From Staphylococcus phage vB_SepM_BE08, in the sequence record MT596505.1: a stretch of DNA of 64,000 nucleotides, one strand, 5' to 3'. A program made the position numbers and the translations under genes. Position 1 is the first letter of the stretch. Every line of letters begins with the position of its first letter. Under the pieces are notes generated by a model. The model did no database searches. It saw only the letters and a program-made list of their open reading frames with translations, and had not been told where the DNA came from. This document shows, in pieces, positions 2,806 to 63,815 of this stretch.

Positions 2806-4536
2806 TTATTTTTTAAAATCTTCAGGTTTTTCGTTATTAGGATTTTTACTTGTTGTCATACCTTGTTGATTTGTATTTGTTTGATTTTTAACTTGTCCGT
2901 CTTTACCTACTTCATTACTTTCTTGTTCTGTATCTTGCTCATTTGTTGTTTCTGTATTTTGGTCTTCTCCTTCTGAGCTTAATACATTTTGCATCATTTC
3001 TAATTTTTCTTTTCTTTGTGCATCTTCATATTGATTTTGTTGGTATATTTGTCCTACTCTTTGTACATATACACCGTTAAGTATAGTGTCTCCGCCTTCG
3101 ATTGGTGGTTCACCTAATTCTTTTCTTACTTCATTAACAGTTAAAGCTACTTCTGCTTTAGCTTTAAGTATTTCTATTTTATCTTTTTCAGATTTAGAAT
3201 CTCCACCAACAAATTGGAATGTATATTTATCTCCATACTCAGATACAATATGTCTATTTATTAAGTCTTCTATAAATCTTAATAAAGGTTGTAATCCTTT
3301 ATTTTGAGAAGCTTGGTGTTTTTTAGACGGGTCTGCTTCGTTTAATGTATTTCCACCTTTAGAACTTGTAGCTCCTCCTCTGTTAGGGAAGTTAATTTCA
3401 GCGGGGTCAATTCCATACAGACTTGAAATAATATTAATAAGATAGTTTAACCATTTCTCAAATTGCATATCATTTGCTGTAGGTGTCATATTTACAAAGT
3501 TAACGTCATCAGCCATCATTACAGGCACTTGCCAACTTCCATTAATACCAGAGAAACTAGATTTCCATTCTCTTTTAAAATTTTCTAATGCATGTTGAGA
3601 TTGTTGTTGGTCTGCTTTTATTTGTAATATACCTCTAGTTGTTCCTCCATGACTAAAGAATCTGTCATTAAAGTTTTCAGTATTATTATAAGCTATAAAT
3701 TCTTTCATAGCTATCTCTACTTCAGAAAGTCCATATCCAGAAGCATTAATATCTGTTCTAGGGTTTCTTATACCCATAGCAAGTTCTCTAGAAGTAAAAT
3801 AAGCTACAACTTTTTTATCTATAACTTGTACAAATCTTTTACCACCTTTTATAATTTTACCCTTCTTATCAGTAGCATAGAATATTGTACTAGGGTCAAC
3901 AGCTATGAACTTATCTAACTTAGTACCATTCTTTTTATTAAATACTTTTTCAAAATTAACTTGGTCGTATAAATAAGTATCTCTAACTATTTTCCTACAG
4001 AAAGTTTGAAAAGAATCTCTATCTACATCTTTATCTCTTCCTGTATTTAATATAAATTCTTCAATTCTTTTAATTTCTTCTTTTTCTTTTTTACCAGGTT
4101 CTGCTTCTAAATCACGCATACGTACTTCAAAACCTAATCCTCTTTCAGAATATCTAGAAGGTTGACAATACATAGCTACCTGATTTGCTCTAGTAAGTAT
4201 AATTGCATTTAGTATAGGATTATTACCAAACTTTTTAAGAACATCATGTAAATTATGCTCATTCTTTGTATAACTTCTTTTATCTCTAAACTCTGGATTA
4301 GTATCCATTAAAGACAAAAAAGGTTCTGCATATGCCTGCTGATTACCATATAGAGATTTTGATATGCTCTTATTTAAATTAACATTATCTTGTTCTATTT
4401 TTTTTATATTAGCTTGTAAATCACTATCTATAGGTACCGCTCCATAACTATCGGTATAGTCTTTACCTAGTCTTAAACTCTTAAATAAATCTGCCAAGTT
4501 ATTTGTCACCACCATTTCTAACCACTGATAATACAA
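2806..4536 (-). CDS. portal protein
   Basis: 576-aa ORF immediately upstream of the prohead protease, with an acidic C-terminal tail. Size and synteny are typical for Twort-like portal proteins. Confidence 0.6.
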   Translation of the reverse strand: MYYQWLEMVVTNNLADLFKSLRLGKDYTDSYGAVPIDSDLQANIKKIEQDNVNLNKSISKSLYGNQQAYAEPFLSLMDTNPEFRDKRSYTKNEHNLHDVLKKFGNNPILNAIILTRANQVAMYCQPSRYSERGLGFEVRMRDLEAEPGKKEKEEIKRIEEFILNTGRDKDVDRDSFQTFCRKIVRDTYLYDQVNFEKVFNKKNGTKLDKFIAVDPSTIFYATDKKGKIIKGGKRFVQVIDKKVVAYFTSRELAMGIRNPRTDINASGYGLSEVEIAMKEFIAYNNTENFNDRFFSHGGTTRGILQIKADQQQSQHALENFKREWKSSFSGINGSWQVPVMMADDVNFVNMTPTANDMQFEKWLNYLINIISSLYGIDPAEINFPNRGGATSSKGGNTLNEADPSKKHQASQNKGLQPLLRFIEDLINRHIVSEYGDKYTFQFVGGDSKSEKDKIEILKAKAEVALTVNEVRKELGEPPIEGGDTILNGVYVQRVGQIYQQNQYEDAQRKEKLEMMQNVLSSEGEDQNTETTNEQDTEQESNEVGKDGQVKNQTNTNQQGMTTSKNPNNEKPEDFKK

Positions 4537-4870
4537 TTGTATTATTAAATGTTAATTCACTTATATTTTTAGGTAAATTAATTTTATATTCAAATGGTTC
4601 TTCTATATAATAAAACATTTTTTTACTTTCTGTTACTAAATCATAATCCTCTAATAATATGTTGTTGTCTTTGTCTAATAAAATAACTCTATTATCTTTT
4701 GTAGCTTCTAATATCATATACTTTTGTTTATCTATAGCAATAAATACAGCAACATGTCTTCCACCAATTTGTCTGTAATAATCAACTATTTCTATCCAAT
4801 TATCTTGCATACCTTGTTGTTTAATAAATTCTTTAGCTTCATCCCATTTACTATCTTTTGAATATATCAC
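4499..4870 (-). CDS. hypothetical protein
   Basis: 123-aa ORF, compactly spaced with its neighbours. Confidence 0.45.
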   Translation of the reverse strand: MIYSKDSKWDEAKEFIKQQGMQDNWIEIVDYYRQIGGRHVAVFIAIDKQKYMILEATKDNRVILLDKDNNILLEDYDLVTESKKMFYYIEEPFEYKINLPKNISELTFNNTIVLSVVRNGGDK

Positions 4871-57761: not shown

Positions 57762-57800
57762 AGACCCCTGTCAATAGGGGTCAGTAAAAAATTTTAATAC
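57762..57800. terminator. bidirectional terminator hairpin (GACCCCTGTCAATAGGGGTC); it also embeds a TGTCAA early-promoter core
   Basis: Perfect 8-bp stem flanked by A and T runs. Confidence 0.5.
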
Positions 57801-57833: not shown

Positions 57834-58646
57834 TTATTTATGTCTCATATCTAATATAGCATTTCCTGAATCTGGTAATGTGATAGGTGTATCACCTTTC
57901 CATTTTTCGATAAGTTGTTTTTGTAGTAACTCATCTGTTAATGATTCTTCTACAATTTCATTTGCTTTCTTAGTACCTTTTGCTTCAATTTCTTTACGTT
58001 CAGCTTCTTCTTTAGCAATTTGTTTGTCAACTTTCTTTCTCTCTAATTCTTGATTTGCTTTAACACGACTGTCAATTGCTTTTTGAGTATTTTTATCTGC
58101 TTTTGGAGAACTTAAAGCAATATCTTCAACAATAAAACCTTGACCTTTAAGATTTTCTTCAAGTTTATCTAAAGTAGATTTTTTAATTTCACTTGTTTTA
58201 ACACCGAAAGCATCAATTACTGAGTATTTAGAAACAGATTGACGTACGTTATCTTGTACTCTTGAACGTAAATAACCTTTTTCTAGCTGTTCAATATCTG
58301 CACTACCAAAACGATTAAATAATTCAACTGCTTTTGAGCTATCAACTTTATAGTTTACATCAATATCTAAATTAAGGTTTTTACCATCTGACGTTGATAC
58401 ATTCATATCTTTGTAGCTGATAGTTTGTGTTCTTGTAGGATATTCATTTACTCTGTTCATAGGTGCTACTAAGTGCCAGCCAGGACTTAGAGTATTATCC
58501 TTAACACCTTTAGGTGAGTATACAACACCTACTGTTCCTTGCGGTACTCTTTCAATACTTAGAAACGCAATTATAATTGCTACAATAATAATAATACCGC
58601 CTATAGTTAATCCTAAACCTGCTTTTACTTTACTTTCCATAATCAT
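57834..58646 (-). CDS. SPFH / band-7 (stomatin/prohibitin/HflKC-like) membrane protein
   Basis: N-terminal TM helix, then RVPQGTVGVVYSPKGV...LSPGWHLVAP, and a C-terminal coiled coil that is K- and E-rich. RBS AAGGAGA. Confidence 0.7.
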   Translation of the reverse strand: MIMESKVKAGLGLTIGGIIIIVAIIIAFLSIERVPQGTVGVVYSPKGVKDNTLSPGWHLVAPMNRVNEYPTRTQTISYKDMNVSTSDGKNLNLDIDVNYKVDSSKAVELFNRFGSADIEQLEKGYLRSRVQDNVRQSVSKYSVIDAFGVKTSEIKKSTLDKLEENLKGQGFIVEDIALSSPKADKNTQKAIDSRVKANQELERKKVDKQIAKEEAERKEIEAKGTKKANEIVEESLTDELLQKQLIEKWKGDTPITLPDSGNAILDMRHK

Positions 58647-58915
58647 TCTCCTTTTTTAATATCTTTATGAAGTTTTTTTAACTCTGATATTTCTTCTTCA
58701 AGTTCTTTAATTTGAGATACACTCGATGTTGATGATTCTAATGCTTCTTTTTCATGGTTTTTTAATTCAATCTCATAGTCAACCATTTTTAATCTCTTAT
58801 TAATTTCTCTTTTCTCTATTTCTTTCCTTACATACTCAAATAGCTTAGTTGCTCCAATAATTATACCTAGTATGATTACTACAAAAATTAAAGCAACTAA
58901 TAGTAACCAAGCCAT
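58643..58915 (-). CDS. small membrane protein with a coiled coil (possible NfeD-like partner of the SPFH protein)
   Basis: 90-aa ORF with an N-terminal TM helix and a 4-nt overlap with the SPFH gene. Confidence 0.45.
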   Translation of the reverse strand: MAWLLLVALIFVVIILGIIIGATKLFEYVRKEIEKREINKRLKMVDYEIELKNHEKEALESSTSSVSQIKELEEEISELKKLHKDIKKGE

Positions 58916-58985: not shown

Positions 58986-61322
58986 TTAACTATCTCTCCA
59001 AACTTGATTTATTTCATTATGAGTTCTTCCTGTTTCATTTTTTGCAAATTCTTCTTGCATTTTTCTTAAAGTGATAATATCTGTATTCTTAAGTTCTTTT
59101 CTAGTTAAATTAGAATAATCACGAACCCAGTAATAAAAAGCTCTTAAACTTTCGTTTTCTTGTAAAATTCTTTGAATAGGTCGTCTATCATTACCTTTAG
59201 CTAAGCTTTCTACGATACCTCTCATGTATTTCCAGTCATTATAGTACTTAGATTTATACTTAAACATAAAACCATTTGAATCTTCAAATACATATCCTTC
59301 ATGTTTAATATCTAAAGAATTATGATTATTCTTATACCAATCATAAAACTCTACCCAAGTATCGAACATAAGAGACCATGATTTAAAAGGTACTCCGATA
59401 GATAAAGCAAATGTATAAGTATTGGAATAACTTTCTTTTTTGAATTCTAAAGTATTATGAATAATATCTAATAAAACGATATGACTTTTATCATATTCAA
59501 TGATATGTGGGTCGTTTTCAATATCAATAACTTCAAACACTAAAGTTCTATCATGTTCTTTAAGATACTTAACGATTGTTTCTACTTGAATATCATCAAA
59601 CTGCTTATCAAATAAATCTTTAAACCATAGAGCATAATCATTATTATGCTTACTTAAATGTGTTTTTGATTTACTACAAAAGACTAAATCATCAATGTTA
59701 GAATCAAAGTAAACTAAACCTAAATAACCATTCTCTTTTTTATAACCATATAACGGAAATTTAATAATATCAGGTAATGCATCTAATTTTGTCTCAGGTC
59801 TTTCATTAATATTGAAAAATTTATTATAACCTCTACCTAAAATTTTATTTACTAGAGTATCAATAAATAATCCTCTAGCACTTACTGTTAATTGGTTCCA
59901 TCTTTTTTTATCAAATGCTTTTTTAGTAAAGTTAACAGATACTACATAATTGTACTGTTCAATGACTTTGATAGATTTTTTCTCTTCTTTAGCTAAACTT
60001 AAATATTTATCTACTGTTAAATCTTTATCAATTGATTTTAAATAGTCTTCATTAACTAAGAACTTATGATTAAATTTTTCATTTTTAATTAATACGGGGT
60101 CAATAGAGTTGTCACTATTAATCGTTACTGCTCTTAAGTAACCACCTTTTTCAACTCTACCTTCTAAGTTGATAGAATTTTTTGTTAAATCTAAACGTTC
60201 ACGATATAAATTTCTATGACCGTGAATCTGAATAACTGAACTATCTTTCCATTTACTGTCTACATCAAATTCATAACTACCTACACCATTAATAAGTTGA
60301 TGTGTTGATACTTTATTTAAATTATCTAACATATTAGGTAAGATACCACCATGATTAATAACATAGTACTGTCCTCTATAATTAAAGTATAGAACTTGTT
60401 GTAAGTTTCTTAAAATAGCACGTACTCGTTTAGGTGTAATACCATTATCAAGGAAAGATTTTAACGTGTACACAAAACCTCTAGCTTTAAATACATCTAA
60501 GGCTAATTTAAATAGTTTAGTTTTATCATCACTAACTTCATGGAGCTCTTTATACGTATCTGTATCTAAGTGAGCATACCTACGTAAATGTCTTTCATGA
60601 TTACCTTCTAATAATTCTACATTGTCTAAGTTATGGATAAGTTCTAAATAATCAAAAGTTTCTTTAGGTTCTAAACCTCTATCAAAGTAATCTCCTACAA
60701 AAATGAATAATTCGTTAGGGTGGTCTACAATGTAGTTATAACTAGCAAATTCATTTAAAGCTGTGAAACAAGAATGTACATCACCGATAACATGAATTTT
60801 ATCATAATGATTTACTTCCATAAAATCTTTATCCCACTCAAGAGAATCTAATACTTCTTCAGGTTTTAATTCTTTTGCAACGCTAGGAATATGCTCATGT
60901 TGTAGTCTTTCATAAATATTCTCAATAACTTCTACAGGAACTTGTTTTAATTTTTCCCTTTGGTTATTACGTTCAATTAATGTGTCTAAGTCTTCTTCTA
61001 AGGTTACTACATAAACACGATAACCATATACTTTAGCTAACTTCTCATATCGTTTAATTAATTTACCTGTAGAGTGTGTAGCATCAATTACAGTAAATTC
61101 ACCATTACTCATACGATTCTCTAAAATTTCAAATAATGTTTTCCAAACTAGATTATCTTTATCTTGAGTAATCGCTATTCTACCTTCTTCATTATAGATA
61201 GGTGAACCGAATTGTAATCTTAAAGTGTCTGGACTTAATGTGTAATTTTCTAGTCCTTTCTCTTTAATAAAAGTAGATTTACCTACACCTGGTACACCTC
61301 TCATTAATAATAATTGTTTCAT
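58986..61322 (-). CDS. trifunctional polynucleotide 5'-kinase / 2',3'-phosphoesterase / RNA ligase (Pnkp-like RNA end-healing and sealing enzyme)
   Basis: N-terminal P-loop kinase (GVPGVGKST, then DTLR). Central calcineurin-like metallophosphoesterase (GDVHS, GDYFDRG, GNHE). C-terminal nucleotidyltransferase-like motifs (KENGYLG as motif I KxNG, EGYVFE, FKYKSKYY as motif V KxK). RBS AAGGAGAGG. Confidence 0.7.
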   Translation of the reverse strand: MKQLLLMRGVPGVGKSTFIKEKGLENYTLSPDTLRLQFGSPIYNEEGRIAITQDKDNLVWKTLFEILENRMSNGEFTVIDATHSTGKLIKRYEKLAKVYGYRVYVVTLEEDLDTLIERNNQREKLKQVPVEVIENIYERLQHEHIPSVAKELKPEEVLDSLEWDKDFMEVNHYDKIHVIGDVHSCFTALNEFASYNYIVDHPNELFIFVGDYFDRGLEPKETFDYLELIHNLDNVELLEGNHERHLRRYAHLDTDTYKELHEVSDDKTKLFKLALDVFKARGFVYTLKSFLDNGITPKRVRAILRNLQQVLYFNYRGQYYVINHGGILPNMLDNLNKVSTHQLINGVGSYEFDVDSKWKDSSVIQIHGHRNLYRERLDLTKNSINLEGRVEKGGYLRAVTINSDNSIDPVLIKNEKFNHKFLVNEDYLKSIDKDLTVDKYLSLAKEEKKSIKVIEQYNYVVSVNFTKKAFDKKRWNQLTVSARGLFIDTLVNKILGRGYNKFFNINERPETKLDALPDIIKFPLYGYKKENGYLGLVYFDSNIDDLVFCSKSKTHLSKHNNDYALWFKDLFDKQFDDIQVETIVKYLKEHDRTLVFEVIDIENDPHIIEYDKSHIVLLDIIHNTLEFKKESYSNTYTFALSIGVPFKSWSLMFDTWVEFYDWYKNNHNSLDIKHEGYVFEDSNGFMFKYKSKYYNDWKYMRGIVESLAKGNDRRPIQRILQENESLRAFYYWVRDYSNLTRKELKNTDIITLRKMQEEFAKNETGRTHNEINQVWRDS

Positions 61323-61339
61323 AATTACCTCTCCTTTTA

Positions 61340-61603
61340 TTATTTAATACTAATAAATTCTATACTGTTTAAAGGTACCCAAACATCGTCTTCTGTTGAA
61401 TTACTTGCAAAAAATAGTGAAAATGTATCAGCGTCACAGTTTTTTAACAACTTAATAAGACTATCTCTCTCTTCAATTGAAACATTAATATCCATATATT
61501 TCCCACTTTTTAGAGCTACTGTGACTTTATATTGTTTTTCTTCTTTAAAATTTTCCATATTATTCATTGAAATATCTCCTTTATTTTTTGATATATACAT
61601 CAT
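61340..61603 (-). CDS. hypothetical protein
   Basis: 87-aa ORF with RBS AAAGGAGATATT. Confidence 0.45.
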   Translation of the reverse strand: MMYISKNKGDISMNNMENFKEEKQYKVTVALKSGKYMDINVSIEERDSLIKLLKNCDADTFSLFFASNSTEDDVWVPLNSIEFISIK

Positions 61604-61928
61604 ATTTAGTGTCTAATTCTCTATTACCTGTTATGAAATAAATTTTACTTTTCTTTGATACTGTATATGTTGTTTTCTTTATATAACTTTTATTACTCTC
61701 ATGTGCTTTTACGTCAACAGAAGATACTGATGCTATTTCATTGAATTGTTCTGCTGAAATTACTGATACATTTTTATCTTTTAAAGCTACTTCTTTAGGT
61801 AAAATAATAGTTACTCCTATTAGTAAAATACCTATAAATCCTAAAAATTCAAAACTTTTTTTTCTCTTTTTTATCCCTACGTACCATGATACTACTGTTA
61901 GAATTAAAATAATAAAATAAAAAATCAT
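61581..61928 (-). CDS. membrane protein with two TM helices
   Basis: 115-aa ORF with RBS AAAGGAGGTATATT. Confidence 0.5.
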   Translation of the reverse strand: MIFYFIILILTVVSWYVGIKKRKKSFEFLGFIGILLIGVTIILPKEVALKDKNVSVISAEQFNEIASVSSVDVKAHESNKSYIKKTTYTVSKKSKIYFITGNRELDTKYDVYIKK

Positions 61929-61981: not shown

Positions 61982-62551
61982 TTATTTAAACTCAATTAAA
62001 TCTTTATGTACATCTTCAGGTTCTAAATAATACTTTTTAGCGGTTTTAGTTATGCCTATTAGTTTATCATTTGTGTTATCCTTATCTACAATCAAACTAT
62101 TAATTTGCTCTTGTATAATATTTTTCGTATTAGGGTTCTTTGTTTTAATTTTACTTATTTCTTTTTCATAAATTTTAATTTGAATATCATTACGTTTTTT
62201 GATTAAAGGTCTAACTTCTTTATTTAACTTACGTTTAATAAAATCACTAATATCATCTCTAGTATCCTTTATAGATTCCCAATCAGCTTCATTATCACTC
62301 ATAATAGTAATAATATTTAAGTGTTTATCAATAACAAGTTTATGCTCTTTAAATACATAAACTTCTCGACCCTTTTCTTGTTGTGTAACATAAGTAGCTT
62401 TATTTAAAGCTTGAGCTACCCACTCTTTTGCTTTCTCTCTTGATGAGTTTTCTACACGCATTAAAAATCTTTCATATGCATGGTTTGTTATATTTACGTG
62501 TTTACTTAAAATAGGTTTTTTTCTTTCCACTATATTTAGCATGTTTAACAT
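61982..62551 (-). CDS. hypothetical protein
   Basis: 189-aa ORF with RBS AGGAGATG and an early promoter at about 62596. Confidence 0.5.
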   Translation of the reverse strand: MLNMLNIVERKKPILSKHVNITNHAYERFLMRVENSSREKAKEWVAQALNKATYVTQQEKGREVYVFKEHKLVIDKHLNIITIMSDNEADWESIKDTRDDISDFIKRKLNKEVRPLIKKRNDIQIKIYEKEISKIKTKNPNTKNIIQEQINSLIVDKDNTNDKLIGITKTAKKYYLEPEDVHKDLIEFK

Positions 62552-62961: not shown

Positions 62962-63462
62962 TTAATTCACTCCTTCTTTGTAATGAATTGAATAGCCTTC
63001 TACTTGAGATAATAAGAATTCTAAATCTACAGTTGAGTCATGTTCTTTAAACTCGATTAAAAATGTATTATTTCTATCACTTTTAAATGCATGTTTGAAT
63101 TTATTAATCTCATTTTCTAAACTATAAACATCATTTTTATTTACTTTAATAACTTTACCACTCTTCAAGTTGATAACGAGTTCGGTTGGTCTTTTAATGA
63201 TGTCAGCATATGTTTCTAGTTCTCTCTTTTGTTTTTCGTGATACTGAATTACTAACGTTAAATCAGAACCTTTTAGACCTTCTTTATTAAAGTTAGCATT
63301 TAAGTCATTACCATTAGATAGTGTGACATGGTTGTCTAGTTTTCTACTTTCTCTAATAATTAAGTCCTCATCTTGTAAATGAATAATGATACTTCCTTTA
63401 CGTACTTCATAATTATATCCATACTGGCTTAACTTATCTTCAATTAAATCTTGATATAACAT
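62962..63462 (-). CDS. hypothetical protein
   Basis: 166-aa ORF with RBS AAAGGTGGAAAAT. Confidence 0.5.
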   Translation of the reverse strand: MLYQDLIEDKLSQYGYNYEVRKGSIIIHLQDEDLIIRESRKLDNHVTLSNGNDLNANFNKEGLKGSDLTLVIQYHEKQKRELETYADIIKRPTELVINLKSGKVIKVNKNDVYSLENEINKFKHAFKSDRNNTFLIEFKEHDSTVDLEFLLSQVEGYSIHYKEGVN

Positions 63463-63815
63463 TATTTTTCCACCTTTTTCTTTATTAAATTATCTATATC
63501 AGGTTCATTAAATGATTTAATAATATATCTACCTTTCTTATTAAAAATAACATCAAAGAAACCATCATCTTGTAACCTAATAACTGCTTCAATATTAAAC
63601 TGCTTTAACTTTTTAAATATTTCTGTTGTCATAGGTGATTCAAAAACAAAAACAACATCTTTATTTTTTTGTTTATTAACATGTTTTTTATTGAAGTTTG
63701 TAATACTACCATAACATAATTTATTTTTCTTGTCAATACCTTTAAAGTATTTTTTCATAGAATCATTTAAGTATGGTTCTTCTTGTTTTTTATACGGAAA
63801 TGCTACTATAATCAT
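63462..63815 (-). CDS. hypothetical protein
   Basis: 117-aa ORF with RBS AAAGGATATAGAAG, overlapping the stop of the upstream gene. Confidence 0.5.
   Translation of the reverse strand: MIIVAFPYKKQEEPYLNDSMKKYFKGIDKKNKLCYGSITNFNKKHVNKQKNKDVVFVFESPMTTEIFKKLKQFNIEAVIRLQDDGFFDVIFNKKGRYIIKSFNEPDIDNLIKKKVEK

Follow-up and report, generated by a model that had tools for sequence, protein, structure and literature searches.

RNA heal-and-seal enzymes are a classic phage answer to defences that cut tRNA. To our knowledge, only two such systems are well studied: the pair formed by Pnkp (pseT) and Rnl1 (rnlA) in phage T4, which is directed against PrrC, and bacterial Pnkp with Hen1. Viral end-healing is also found in mycobacteriophages Omega and Cjw1, whose Pnkp consists of a T4-like kinase and a lambda-phosphatase-like domain without a fused ligase, and in the baculovirus AcNPV, whose Pnk/Pnl carries a fused Rnl1-like ligase, in the order ligase-kinase-phosphatase and with a phosphatase of the HAD type. 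Here we present a gene located on the minus strand (58986..61322) of a window of 64,000 nucleotides, the whole stretch of DNA analysed, from Staphylococcus phage vB_SepM_BE08 (MT596505.1), a Sepunavirus (Herelleviridae, Twortvirinae). Judged from its sequence, the gene encodes one chain with three catalytic modules for mending cut RNA (kinase, phosphatase and ligase), in a domain order opposite to that of the baculovirus protein. We regard the product as a self-contained RNA heal-and-seal enzyme that probably reverses the damage done to host tRNA or other translation RNA by ribotoxin defences of the host.

The healing reaction has been dissected in Clostridium thermocellum Pnkp (CthPnkp), which opens the cyclic phosphate to a 2'-phosphomonoester and then removes the phosphate (PMC1920235). 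Ends of tRNA that the wild-type enzyme has healed can be sealed by T4 Rnl1 (PMC1920235). In the H189D variant the monoesterase activity is abolished and the product is frozen at the 2'-PO4 stage, which is sealed by the yeast ligase but not by T4 Rnl1 (PMC1920235). Regarding the sealing step, ligases of the Rnl1, Rnl4 and Rnl6 clades have the adenylyltransferase domain in common and are told apart by their C-domains (PMC6379707).

One intact open reading frame with three catalytic modules

On the minus strand, the open reading frame (ORF) listing gives a single intact frame, 58986..61322, which starts with ATG and has 778 codons and a stop codon at 58986-58988; the plus-strand frame of the same interval contains many stops. 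An initial annotation, made from the sequence, had described this 778-aa ORF correctly while leaving the strand unstated. It had also named a sequencing frameshift joining two genes as a finding that would undo its proposal. The conservation of the intact ORF in many genomes rules out such an artefact: the frame is uninterrupted in 15 Sepunavirus genomes (97-99% nucleotide identity) and intact in 107 phage records (at least 80% protein coverage), and a word-indexed search retrieved hundreds of metagenomic proteins of 700-800 aa that share all three Pfam domains. The full-length AF2 model of the protein has a mean pLDDT of 91.3 and a pTM of 0.70, a second model reached a pLDDT of 94.3, and residues 766-778 are predicted to be disordered.

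The whole ORF (778 aa plus stop) reads as a trifunctional kinase-phosphoesterase-RNA ligase, supported by Pfam and the AF2 model, and its match to PHROG 8238 ('RNA ligase') is a full-length one: 1168 bits at E = 0, with residues 1-763 aligned to positions 1-736 of the 737 in the profile. All motifs quoted in the initial annotation are found, namely GVPGVGKST (residues 9-17), DTLR (32-35), GDVH (180-183), GDYFDRG (210-216), GNHE (240-243), KENG (529-532) and FKYKSK (687-692). The Pfam search that it had proposed returns AAA_33, Metallophos and RNA_lig_T4_1, each above its gathering cut-off, and the order kinase, metallophosphoesterase, ligase with intact active-site residues is upheld by Pfam, alignments and conservation alike. 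Conservation was assessed by aligning 259 relatives, whose identity ranges from 35 to 99% (median 40%). The catalytic residues of all three modules are invariant or nearly so in these relatives, which argues for selection on all three activities; it is the pattern that purifying selection on three active sites would be expected to give.

The kinase module, a P-loop 5'-OH polynucleotide kinase by Pfam, hhalign, Protein Data Bank (PDB) matches and conservation, covers residues 1-165 (60828..61322, minus strand). Pfam AAA_33 matches residues 4-138 with 76.1 bits (gathering cut-off 27), and hhalign aligns residues 1-143 with residues 1-145 of T4 Pnkp at a probability of 97.5%. In this alignment, K15, S16, D32, R35 and R122 correspond to T4 Pnkp K15, S16, D35, R38 and R126, residues that Wang, Lima and Shuman reportedly found in 2002 to be essential for the kinase; all five are invariant among the relatives. 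Profile and Foldseek searches match the module to the CthPnkp kinase (4gp7/4jst/4mde) and to T4 Pnk (1ly1). Since the alignment ends at T4 Pnkp residue 145, the T4 HAD phosphatase is without counterpart in the phage protein. The T4 Pnkp family architecture, a kinase followed by a DxDxT HAD 3'-phosphatase, is thus represented in the alignment by its kinase half only.

Instead of a HAD domain, residues 170-415 (60078..60815, minus strand) form a binuclear metallophosphoesterase module, of the 2',3'-cyclic phosphodiesterase/phosphomonoesterase kind, as judged by Pfam, profile and Foldseek searches and conservation. Pfam Metallophos matches residues 175-377 with 50.7 bits (gathering cut-off 21.5). 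A profile of 44 family members matches the CthPnkp phosphatase (4j6o) over residues 171-398 and also lambda phosphatase (1g5b), and Foldseek matches the module to the same two structures. The residues essential for the CthPnkp phosphatase are Asp187, His189, Asp233, Arg237, Asn263, His264, His323 and His376 (PMC3675462). By motif, their counterparts in the phage protein are D181, H183, D211, R215, N241, H242, H324 and H369, with the GDxH, GDxxDRG, GNHE and GH motifs placed at D181/H183, D211/R215, N241/H242, H324 and H369. The protein encoded in the window keeps the wild-type His183, equivalent to CthPnkp His189. At this position (nt 60774-60776) GDxQ stands in place of GDxH in 23 of the 259 relatives, which are 36-64% identical among themselves and keep the other catalytic residues.

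A ligase module of the Trl1 type

The sealing part of the protein is composed of the adenylyltransferase domain of an ATP-dependent RNA ligase of the Rnl1/Trl1 type (residues 445-692; 59247..59990, minus strand) and an all-helical C-terminal domain (residues 693-765; 59028..59246, minus strand) that aligns with the C-domain of Trl1-LIG (Rnl6). Pfam RNA_lig_T4_1 (PF09511) matches residues 482-693 with 130.3 bits (gathering cut-off 28.3). Together with the structural neighbours Trl1-LIG and T4 Rnl1, this match confirms that the C-terminal third of the protein has a nucleotidyltransferase fold, as had been anticipated. The adenylyltransferase domain includes R483, K501, F503, K529, K551, E597 (motif III), H606, E675-G676 (motif IV) and K688/K690 (motif V), and K529, in motif I KENG, is the predicted AMP acceptor. 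An hhalign comparison with T4 Rnl1 (probability 97.2%) ends at T4 residue 249. It pairs R483, K501, F503, K529, G532 and K551 with T4 Rnl1 R54, K75, F77, K99, G102 and K119, and E597, E675, G676, K688 and K690 with E159, E227, G228, K240 and K242. These T4 residues are said to have been found essential by Wang, Ho, Pei and Shuman in 2003.

The module therefore contains an adenylyltransferase of the Rnl1 family, complete with its motifs (I, III, IV and V) and with the N-terminal sub-module of the Rnl1 type. A C-terminal tRNA-specificity domain of the T4 Rnl1 type is not present in the phage ligase, the alignment to T4 Rnl1 stopping at residue 249; what is appended to the Rnl1-like domain is a helical C-domain of the Rnl6 type. 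Its invariant positions are K698, R701 and R753 (exact counts for the first two are given below). In a profile search of PDB sequences, fungal Trl1 ligase domains came first (9qw7, 1.5e-31; 6n0v, 7e-22), with alignments that include the C-terminal domain and end only where the profile does, and T4 Rnl1 (2c5u, 1e-11) matched the adenylyltransferase part only. Structural comparison of the ligase led to the same result. Trl1-LIG scored 28.7 for 6n0t (312) and 26.4 for 9qw7 (316), where the number in brackets is the second value of each comparison, followed by T4 Rnl1 with 23.8 (249), archaeal Rnl3 enzymes with 17-18 (258-264), the CthPnkp ligase (4drf_A) with 8.3 (198) and the Rnl of the Pnkp1/Rnl/Hen1 complex (4xrp_B) with 6.3 (179). 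Foldseek with the full-length model gave the same ranking of ligase neighbours. Over the whole protein, the best structural neighbours of the models were Trl1-LIG, T4 Rnl1, the CthPnkp kinase and phosphatase, and T4 Pnk. By the C-domain criterion (PMC6379707), the ligase groups with Trl1 (Rnl6) and not with Pnkp (Rnl4) or T4 Rnl1. In summary, it resembles the fungal tRNA-splicing ligase Trl1 more than it does the bacterial Pnkp ligase or T4 Rnl1.

This result limits the likeness to CthPnkp on which the initial annotation had relied. The likeness stands for the domain order and for the kinase and phosphatase, which are homologous to those of CthPnkp (4gp7/4jst/4mde and 4j6o) and gave Foldseek TM values of 0.72 and 0.66, respectively, normalised to the target. 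It does not extend to membership of the bacterial Pnkp family. With the NCBIfam model of that family, TIGR04075, the protein reaches 59 bits where the cut-off is 750, and the match is confined to residues 4-250 (model positions 10-269 of 851), the C-terminal ligase is not of the Rnl4 clade, and the comparison of a model with CthPnkp, suggested as a check, places the ligase far closer to Trl1-LIG (28.7 vs 8.3). Family membership was rejected on the TIGR04075 score and the ligase structural comparison. The remark that no Hen1 lies nearby was accurate: no methyltransferase domain occurs among the neighbouring genes, and no Hen1 is annotated in the whole genome of the related Sepunavirus 80A. As a ligase of the Rnl1/Trl1 lineage with a Trl1-like helical C-domain would need no Hen1-type activator, independence from Hen1 is expected.

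Proposed function and alternative explanations

An RNA-repair role, as put forward in the initial annotation, is the natural reading of three intact modules. From domain identities, folds, conserved catalytic residues and family distribution we infer the activities, the kind of RNA mended and the defence countered. The kinase would phosphorylate the 5'-OH, with D32 as general base and K15, S16 and R122 acting on the NTP phosphates. The Mn/Ni-type binuclear metallophosphoesterase would open the cyclic phosphate to a phosphomonoester and, having H183, would probably remove the phosphate to leave a 3'-OH. The ligase would then react with ATP to form ligase-AMP at K529, adenylylate the new 5'-phosphate and join it to the 3'-OH. 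Likely targets would be RNAs cut by anticodon nucleases or HEPN RNases of the host. An anti-defence role is inferred by analogy with the action of T4 Pnkp/Rnl1 against PrrC and with the phage RNA-repair literature (PMC9503650, PMC7824862). ARAGORN found no tRNA genes in the 64-kb window or in the complete genome of Sepunavirus 80A (L007-L009), and for a phage without tRNA genes repair rather than replacement would be the option. In one metagenomic contig (L014, 6001-14199), the homologue P0096 is followed by genes for a NAD-dependent DNA ligase, a sigma-factor-like protein, RlaP (PF10127) and a CCA-adding-type tRNA nucleotidyltransferase. The arrangement resembles a larger cluster for RNA/tRNA repair, and the RlaP and CCA-enzyme neighbours support an RNA/tRNA repair setting for the family.

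Several observations weigh against the proposed repair of ribotoxin damage. Nothing in the sequence points to a particular RNA substrate or host nuclease, and a Pfam scan of the genes scanned in the same transcription unit found no other RNA-related domain. The gene has decayed in Silviavirus, and so it is dispensable in some hosts. A search of the literature found no experimental work on any family member, although the family may already be described in Burroughs and Aravind 2016 (NAR 44:8525), the likeliest survey to list it. Finally, the Trl1-like His-Lys-Arg triad of the ligase may hint at a preference for 2'-phosphate ends, which would change the second step of the scheme.

The last point leads to a different, yeast-type route, which we consider unlikely but which has specific evidence in its favour. 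Here, the ligase would take a 3'-OH,2'-PO4 end, either as the product of healing or as a transient, through H606, K698 and R701, and the 2'-phosphate junction would be cleaned later by a host or phage activity. The ligase is indeed closer to Trl1-LIG than to T4 Rnl1 and has the C-domain in common with the former, and T4 Rnl1 is without a His at the H606 position. In Chaetomium Trl1-LIG (CthLIG), His227, Arg334 and Arg337 bind an anion that mimics the RNA 2'-phosphate, and their mutants slow RNA adenylylation 60- to 580-fold (PMC11404444). In a HMMER alignment to 6n0v these residues appear to correspond to H606, K698 and R701. H606 is found in 259 of 259 relatives, position 698 is Lys in 256 and Arg in 3, and R701 is kept in 257 of 259, which would suit a functional triad of this kind; the same triad could, however, simply bind the 3'-terminal nucleotide or the backbone, and its first C-domain position is Lys instead of Arg. 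On the healing side, CthPnkp itself goes via a 2'-phosphomonoester, and its H189D variant supplies ends for the yeast ligase (PMC1920235). The natural Gln at the His189-equivalent in 23 of 259 relatives points in the same direction, as Asn or Gln at the essential histidines of CthPnkp did not restore monoesterase activity except at His264 (PMC3675462). The window protein, however, has His183, and full dephosphorylation is therefore expected of it. Moreover, Tpt1/KptA, 2H and Macro proteins are neither annotated in 80A nor found beside two Gln-variant relatives. Likewise unlikely is the broader proposal that this large family of phages and Firmicutes represents the first prokaryotic or viral Trl1-type (Rnl6) branch with yeast-like chemistry, in which the 2'-PO4 would be permanent in GDxQ proteins and transient in GDxH proteins, and the junction would be marked with no Tpt1 alongside.

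A role in housekeeping end-processing appears improbable. The enzyme would in that case act on phage or host RNAs that RNases of the phage itself have cut, or heal 3'-phosphate/5'-OH ends of DNA in the course of replication or recombination; it could also have a second, non-enzymatic function in tail-fibre attachment, as T4 gp63 does. In phage 80A, genes for replication, recombination and nucleotide metabolism precede the gene on its own strand, and some relatives are found among thymidylate synthase, DHFR and ribonucleotide reductase genes or beside a NAD-dependent DNA ligase. The ligase part is related to PHROG 562 ('RNA ligase and tail fiber protein attachment catalyst'), and T4 Pnkp acts on DNA ends too. 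The ligase fold, however, belongs to the RNA-specific Rnl1/Trl1 lineage, and the RlaP and CCA-enzyme context in L014 also speaks for RNA. In addition, the gene is accessory, being lost or truncated in Silviavirus, a pattern typical of host-specific counter-defence and not of core replication. Least credible by far is that the protein is a genuine member of a bacterial Pnkp/Hen1 system whose Hen1 was lost or is encoded elsewhere. The CthPnkp-like domain order and the match of both healing modules to CthPnkp structures would fit such a system, but the TIGR04075 score (59 vs 750 bits) comes from the first ~250 residues only, no methyltransferase resembling Hen1 is annotated either in the operon or anywhere in the related genome, and the idea is already refuted at the level of family membership by that score and the ligase structural comparison.

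Transcription unit and neighbouring genes

The gene encoding the proposed heal-and-seal enzyme is preceded by a strong consensus Shine-Dalgarno sequence, AAGGAGAGG (61328..61336, minus strand), 5 nt upstream of the ATG; the annotation of phage Quidividi has a ribosome-binding site in the same position. Three small ORFs without a Pfam match lie upstream in the same unit (61982-62551, 61581-61928 and 61340-61603, all minus strand). Two sigma-70-like sequences upstream of these small ORFs (62601-62573 and 61977-61949, minus strand; 11/12 matches each) are candidate promoters of the unit, called by a consensus scan only, in which the overall promoter count was not above shuffled expectation. Downstream follow a 90-aa membrane protein with no Pfam match above threshold (58643-58915, minus strand) and a 270-aa SPFH/Band_7 membrane protein (57834-58646, minus strand). 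A terminator-like hairpin with a T-run (57763..57782, minus strand) closes the unit after the Band_7 gene, and another terminator-like hairpin (62643-62619, minus strand) marks its upstream boundary; Quidividi has terminators annotated at places equivalent to both. This layout is compatible with early transcription by the host polymerase.

No Hen1, Tpt1/KptA, 2H/LigT, Macro or second RNA ligase gene was found in the operon, and none is annotated in the complete Sepunavirus 80A genome. A LigT gene is present ~3 kb from the Thermoactinomyces homologue, a single instance. Band_7 genes lie within 3 kb of homologues in contigs L012 (10409-11371) and L013 (10323-11225), one of them apparently chromosomal in Thermoactinomyces. 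A Band_7 neighbour was thus seen in 2 of 7 other homologue contexts inspected and was absent from five. The association with the repair enzyme may be due to chance and is too weak to claim a functional link. PgpA genes recur near the homologues in both L012 and L013. Further upstream, Quidividi carries an IS605 OrfB/TnpB-type transposase gene (L001, 2337-3569), which separates the homologues of window ORFs 63462-63815 and 62962-63462. The window lacks this insertion: there, as in phage 80A, the two ORFs directly adjoin each other.

Distribution and decay of the family

The gene is already annotated in related phages, its domains are evident from any Pfam scan, and the large family to which it belongs is already named. 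It shows 98.8% identity to Quidividi_174 ('polynucleotide kinase') and 98.5% to its counterpart in phiIBB-SEP1 ('RNA ligase'), and at the protein level the identity to those annotated in sequenced Sepunaviruses is 98-99%. With E<=1e-30 as the limit, an exhaustive HMMER scan yielded at least 914 protein clusters (50% identity), and practically all of the best 150 align from one end to the other. The fused gene occurs in Twort (ORF008), SA11, all Sepunaviruses and the ~90-kb S-CoN/CF1 phages, and also in SPbeta-like Bacillus phages, Brochothrix phage A9, and Fusobacterium and Lactobacillus phages. Other homologues are found in large phage contigs or in apparently chromosomal contexts. It had been supposed that the fusion sets this phage apart from other Twort-like phages, in which phosphatase and RNA ligase genes would be separate. 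This did not hold up: the same fused gene is the norm there, and the shorter or split genes are Silviavirus remnants or copies in the Alsa phages that an intein and frame breaks have split.

The nominally bacterial copy of Bacillus halotolerans lies inside an SPbeta-like prophage together with AimR/AimP, YoqO and Gad1. It is ~6 kb from the Gad1 (anti-Gabija) gene (L004, 16019-16906), among small accessory genes, and this proximity fits an anti-defence gene neighbourhood.

In Silviavirus the gene persists as N-terminally truncated remnants, one of 480 aa in Remus (L005, 2579-4021), where residues ~258-753 are kept, and one of 253 aa in V1SA22 (L006, 2450-3211). Both are annotated 'putative 2,3-cyclic nucleotide 3-phosphodiesterase' although mostly the ligase domain is left. 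Alsa_3 (L002, 2896-4708) has a LAGLIDADG-type intein in the kinase P-loop (MKQLVLMRGVPGAGK / ALDNN...VTHN / TTFIKE), and its frame is broken twice, near 3481 within the intein and near 4670 within the GNHE motif, which makes the gene a pseudogene unless the breaks are sequencing errors. The annotation of its N-terminal piece reads 'terminase large subunit'. The metagenomic homologue P0042 (1001 aa) contains an in-frame HNH/NUMOD segment (NUMOD4, HNH_3, NUMOD1, I-HmuI-like) at residues ~220-440, between kinase and phosphoesterase. The Alsa intein and the homing-endonuclease segment of P0042 show that mobile elements have repeatedly targeted the gene.

Significance and comparison with known systems

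The discovery is a modest one, as the gene was already annotated, and the testable point that emerges is the end specificity of its Trl1-like ligase. Nevertheless, the family represents a very common one-polypeptide solution to RNA repair in phages of the Twort-like, SPbeta-like, Lactobacillus, Brochothrix and Fusobacterium groups, described as Gram-positive phages. If active, the enzyme would offer a compact means of mending or joining RNAs that end in a cyclic phosphate. It could also serve as a marker for hosts with RNA-cleaving immunity, a point of relevance when Staphylococcus phages are selected for therapy, and, from the bacterial world, as a tractable relative of the fungal ligase that is under study as a target for antifungals.

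The members of PHROG 8238 (Twort ORF008, SEP1, SA11, SPbeta-like phages and Brochothrix A9 gp147) are the protein's own family, and point substitutions are the only difference. Among characterised systems, CthPnkp likewise runs, from N to C terminus, from kinase through binuclear metallophosphoesterase to ligase, and it shares homologous healing modules and the full set of phosphatase active-site residues with the phage protein. The T4 pair Pnkp and Rnl1 carries out the same three chemical steps with the same likely biological logic, and its Pnkp kinase domain and Rnl1 adenylyltransferase domain are homologous to those of the phage protein, with all key residues aligned. It differs in being two proteins and in its phosphatase, which is of the DxDxT (HAD) type and not a metallophosphoesterase, and the C-terminal tRNA-specificity domain of T4 Rnl1 has no place in the phage protein. 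The ligase domain of fungal Trl1 (Rnl6; PDB 6n0t, 6n0v, 9qw7 and 8rbj) is among the closest known systems. Trl1 is arranged as LIG-KIN-CPD with a 2H cyclic phosphodiesterase, in contrast to the kinase-metallophosphoesterase-ligase order of the phage protein, in which Pfam finds no 2H/LigT domain and which thus lacks the fungal and plant Trl1/AtRNL architecture. Trl1 also acts in tRNA and HAC1 splicing and not in phage infection, and the first Arg of its triad is replaced by Lys (K698) in the phage ligase. Relative to all these characterised systems, the union of Pnkp-type healing modules and a Trl1-type sealing module in one chain is a new combination.

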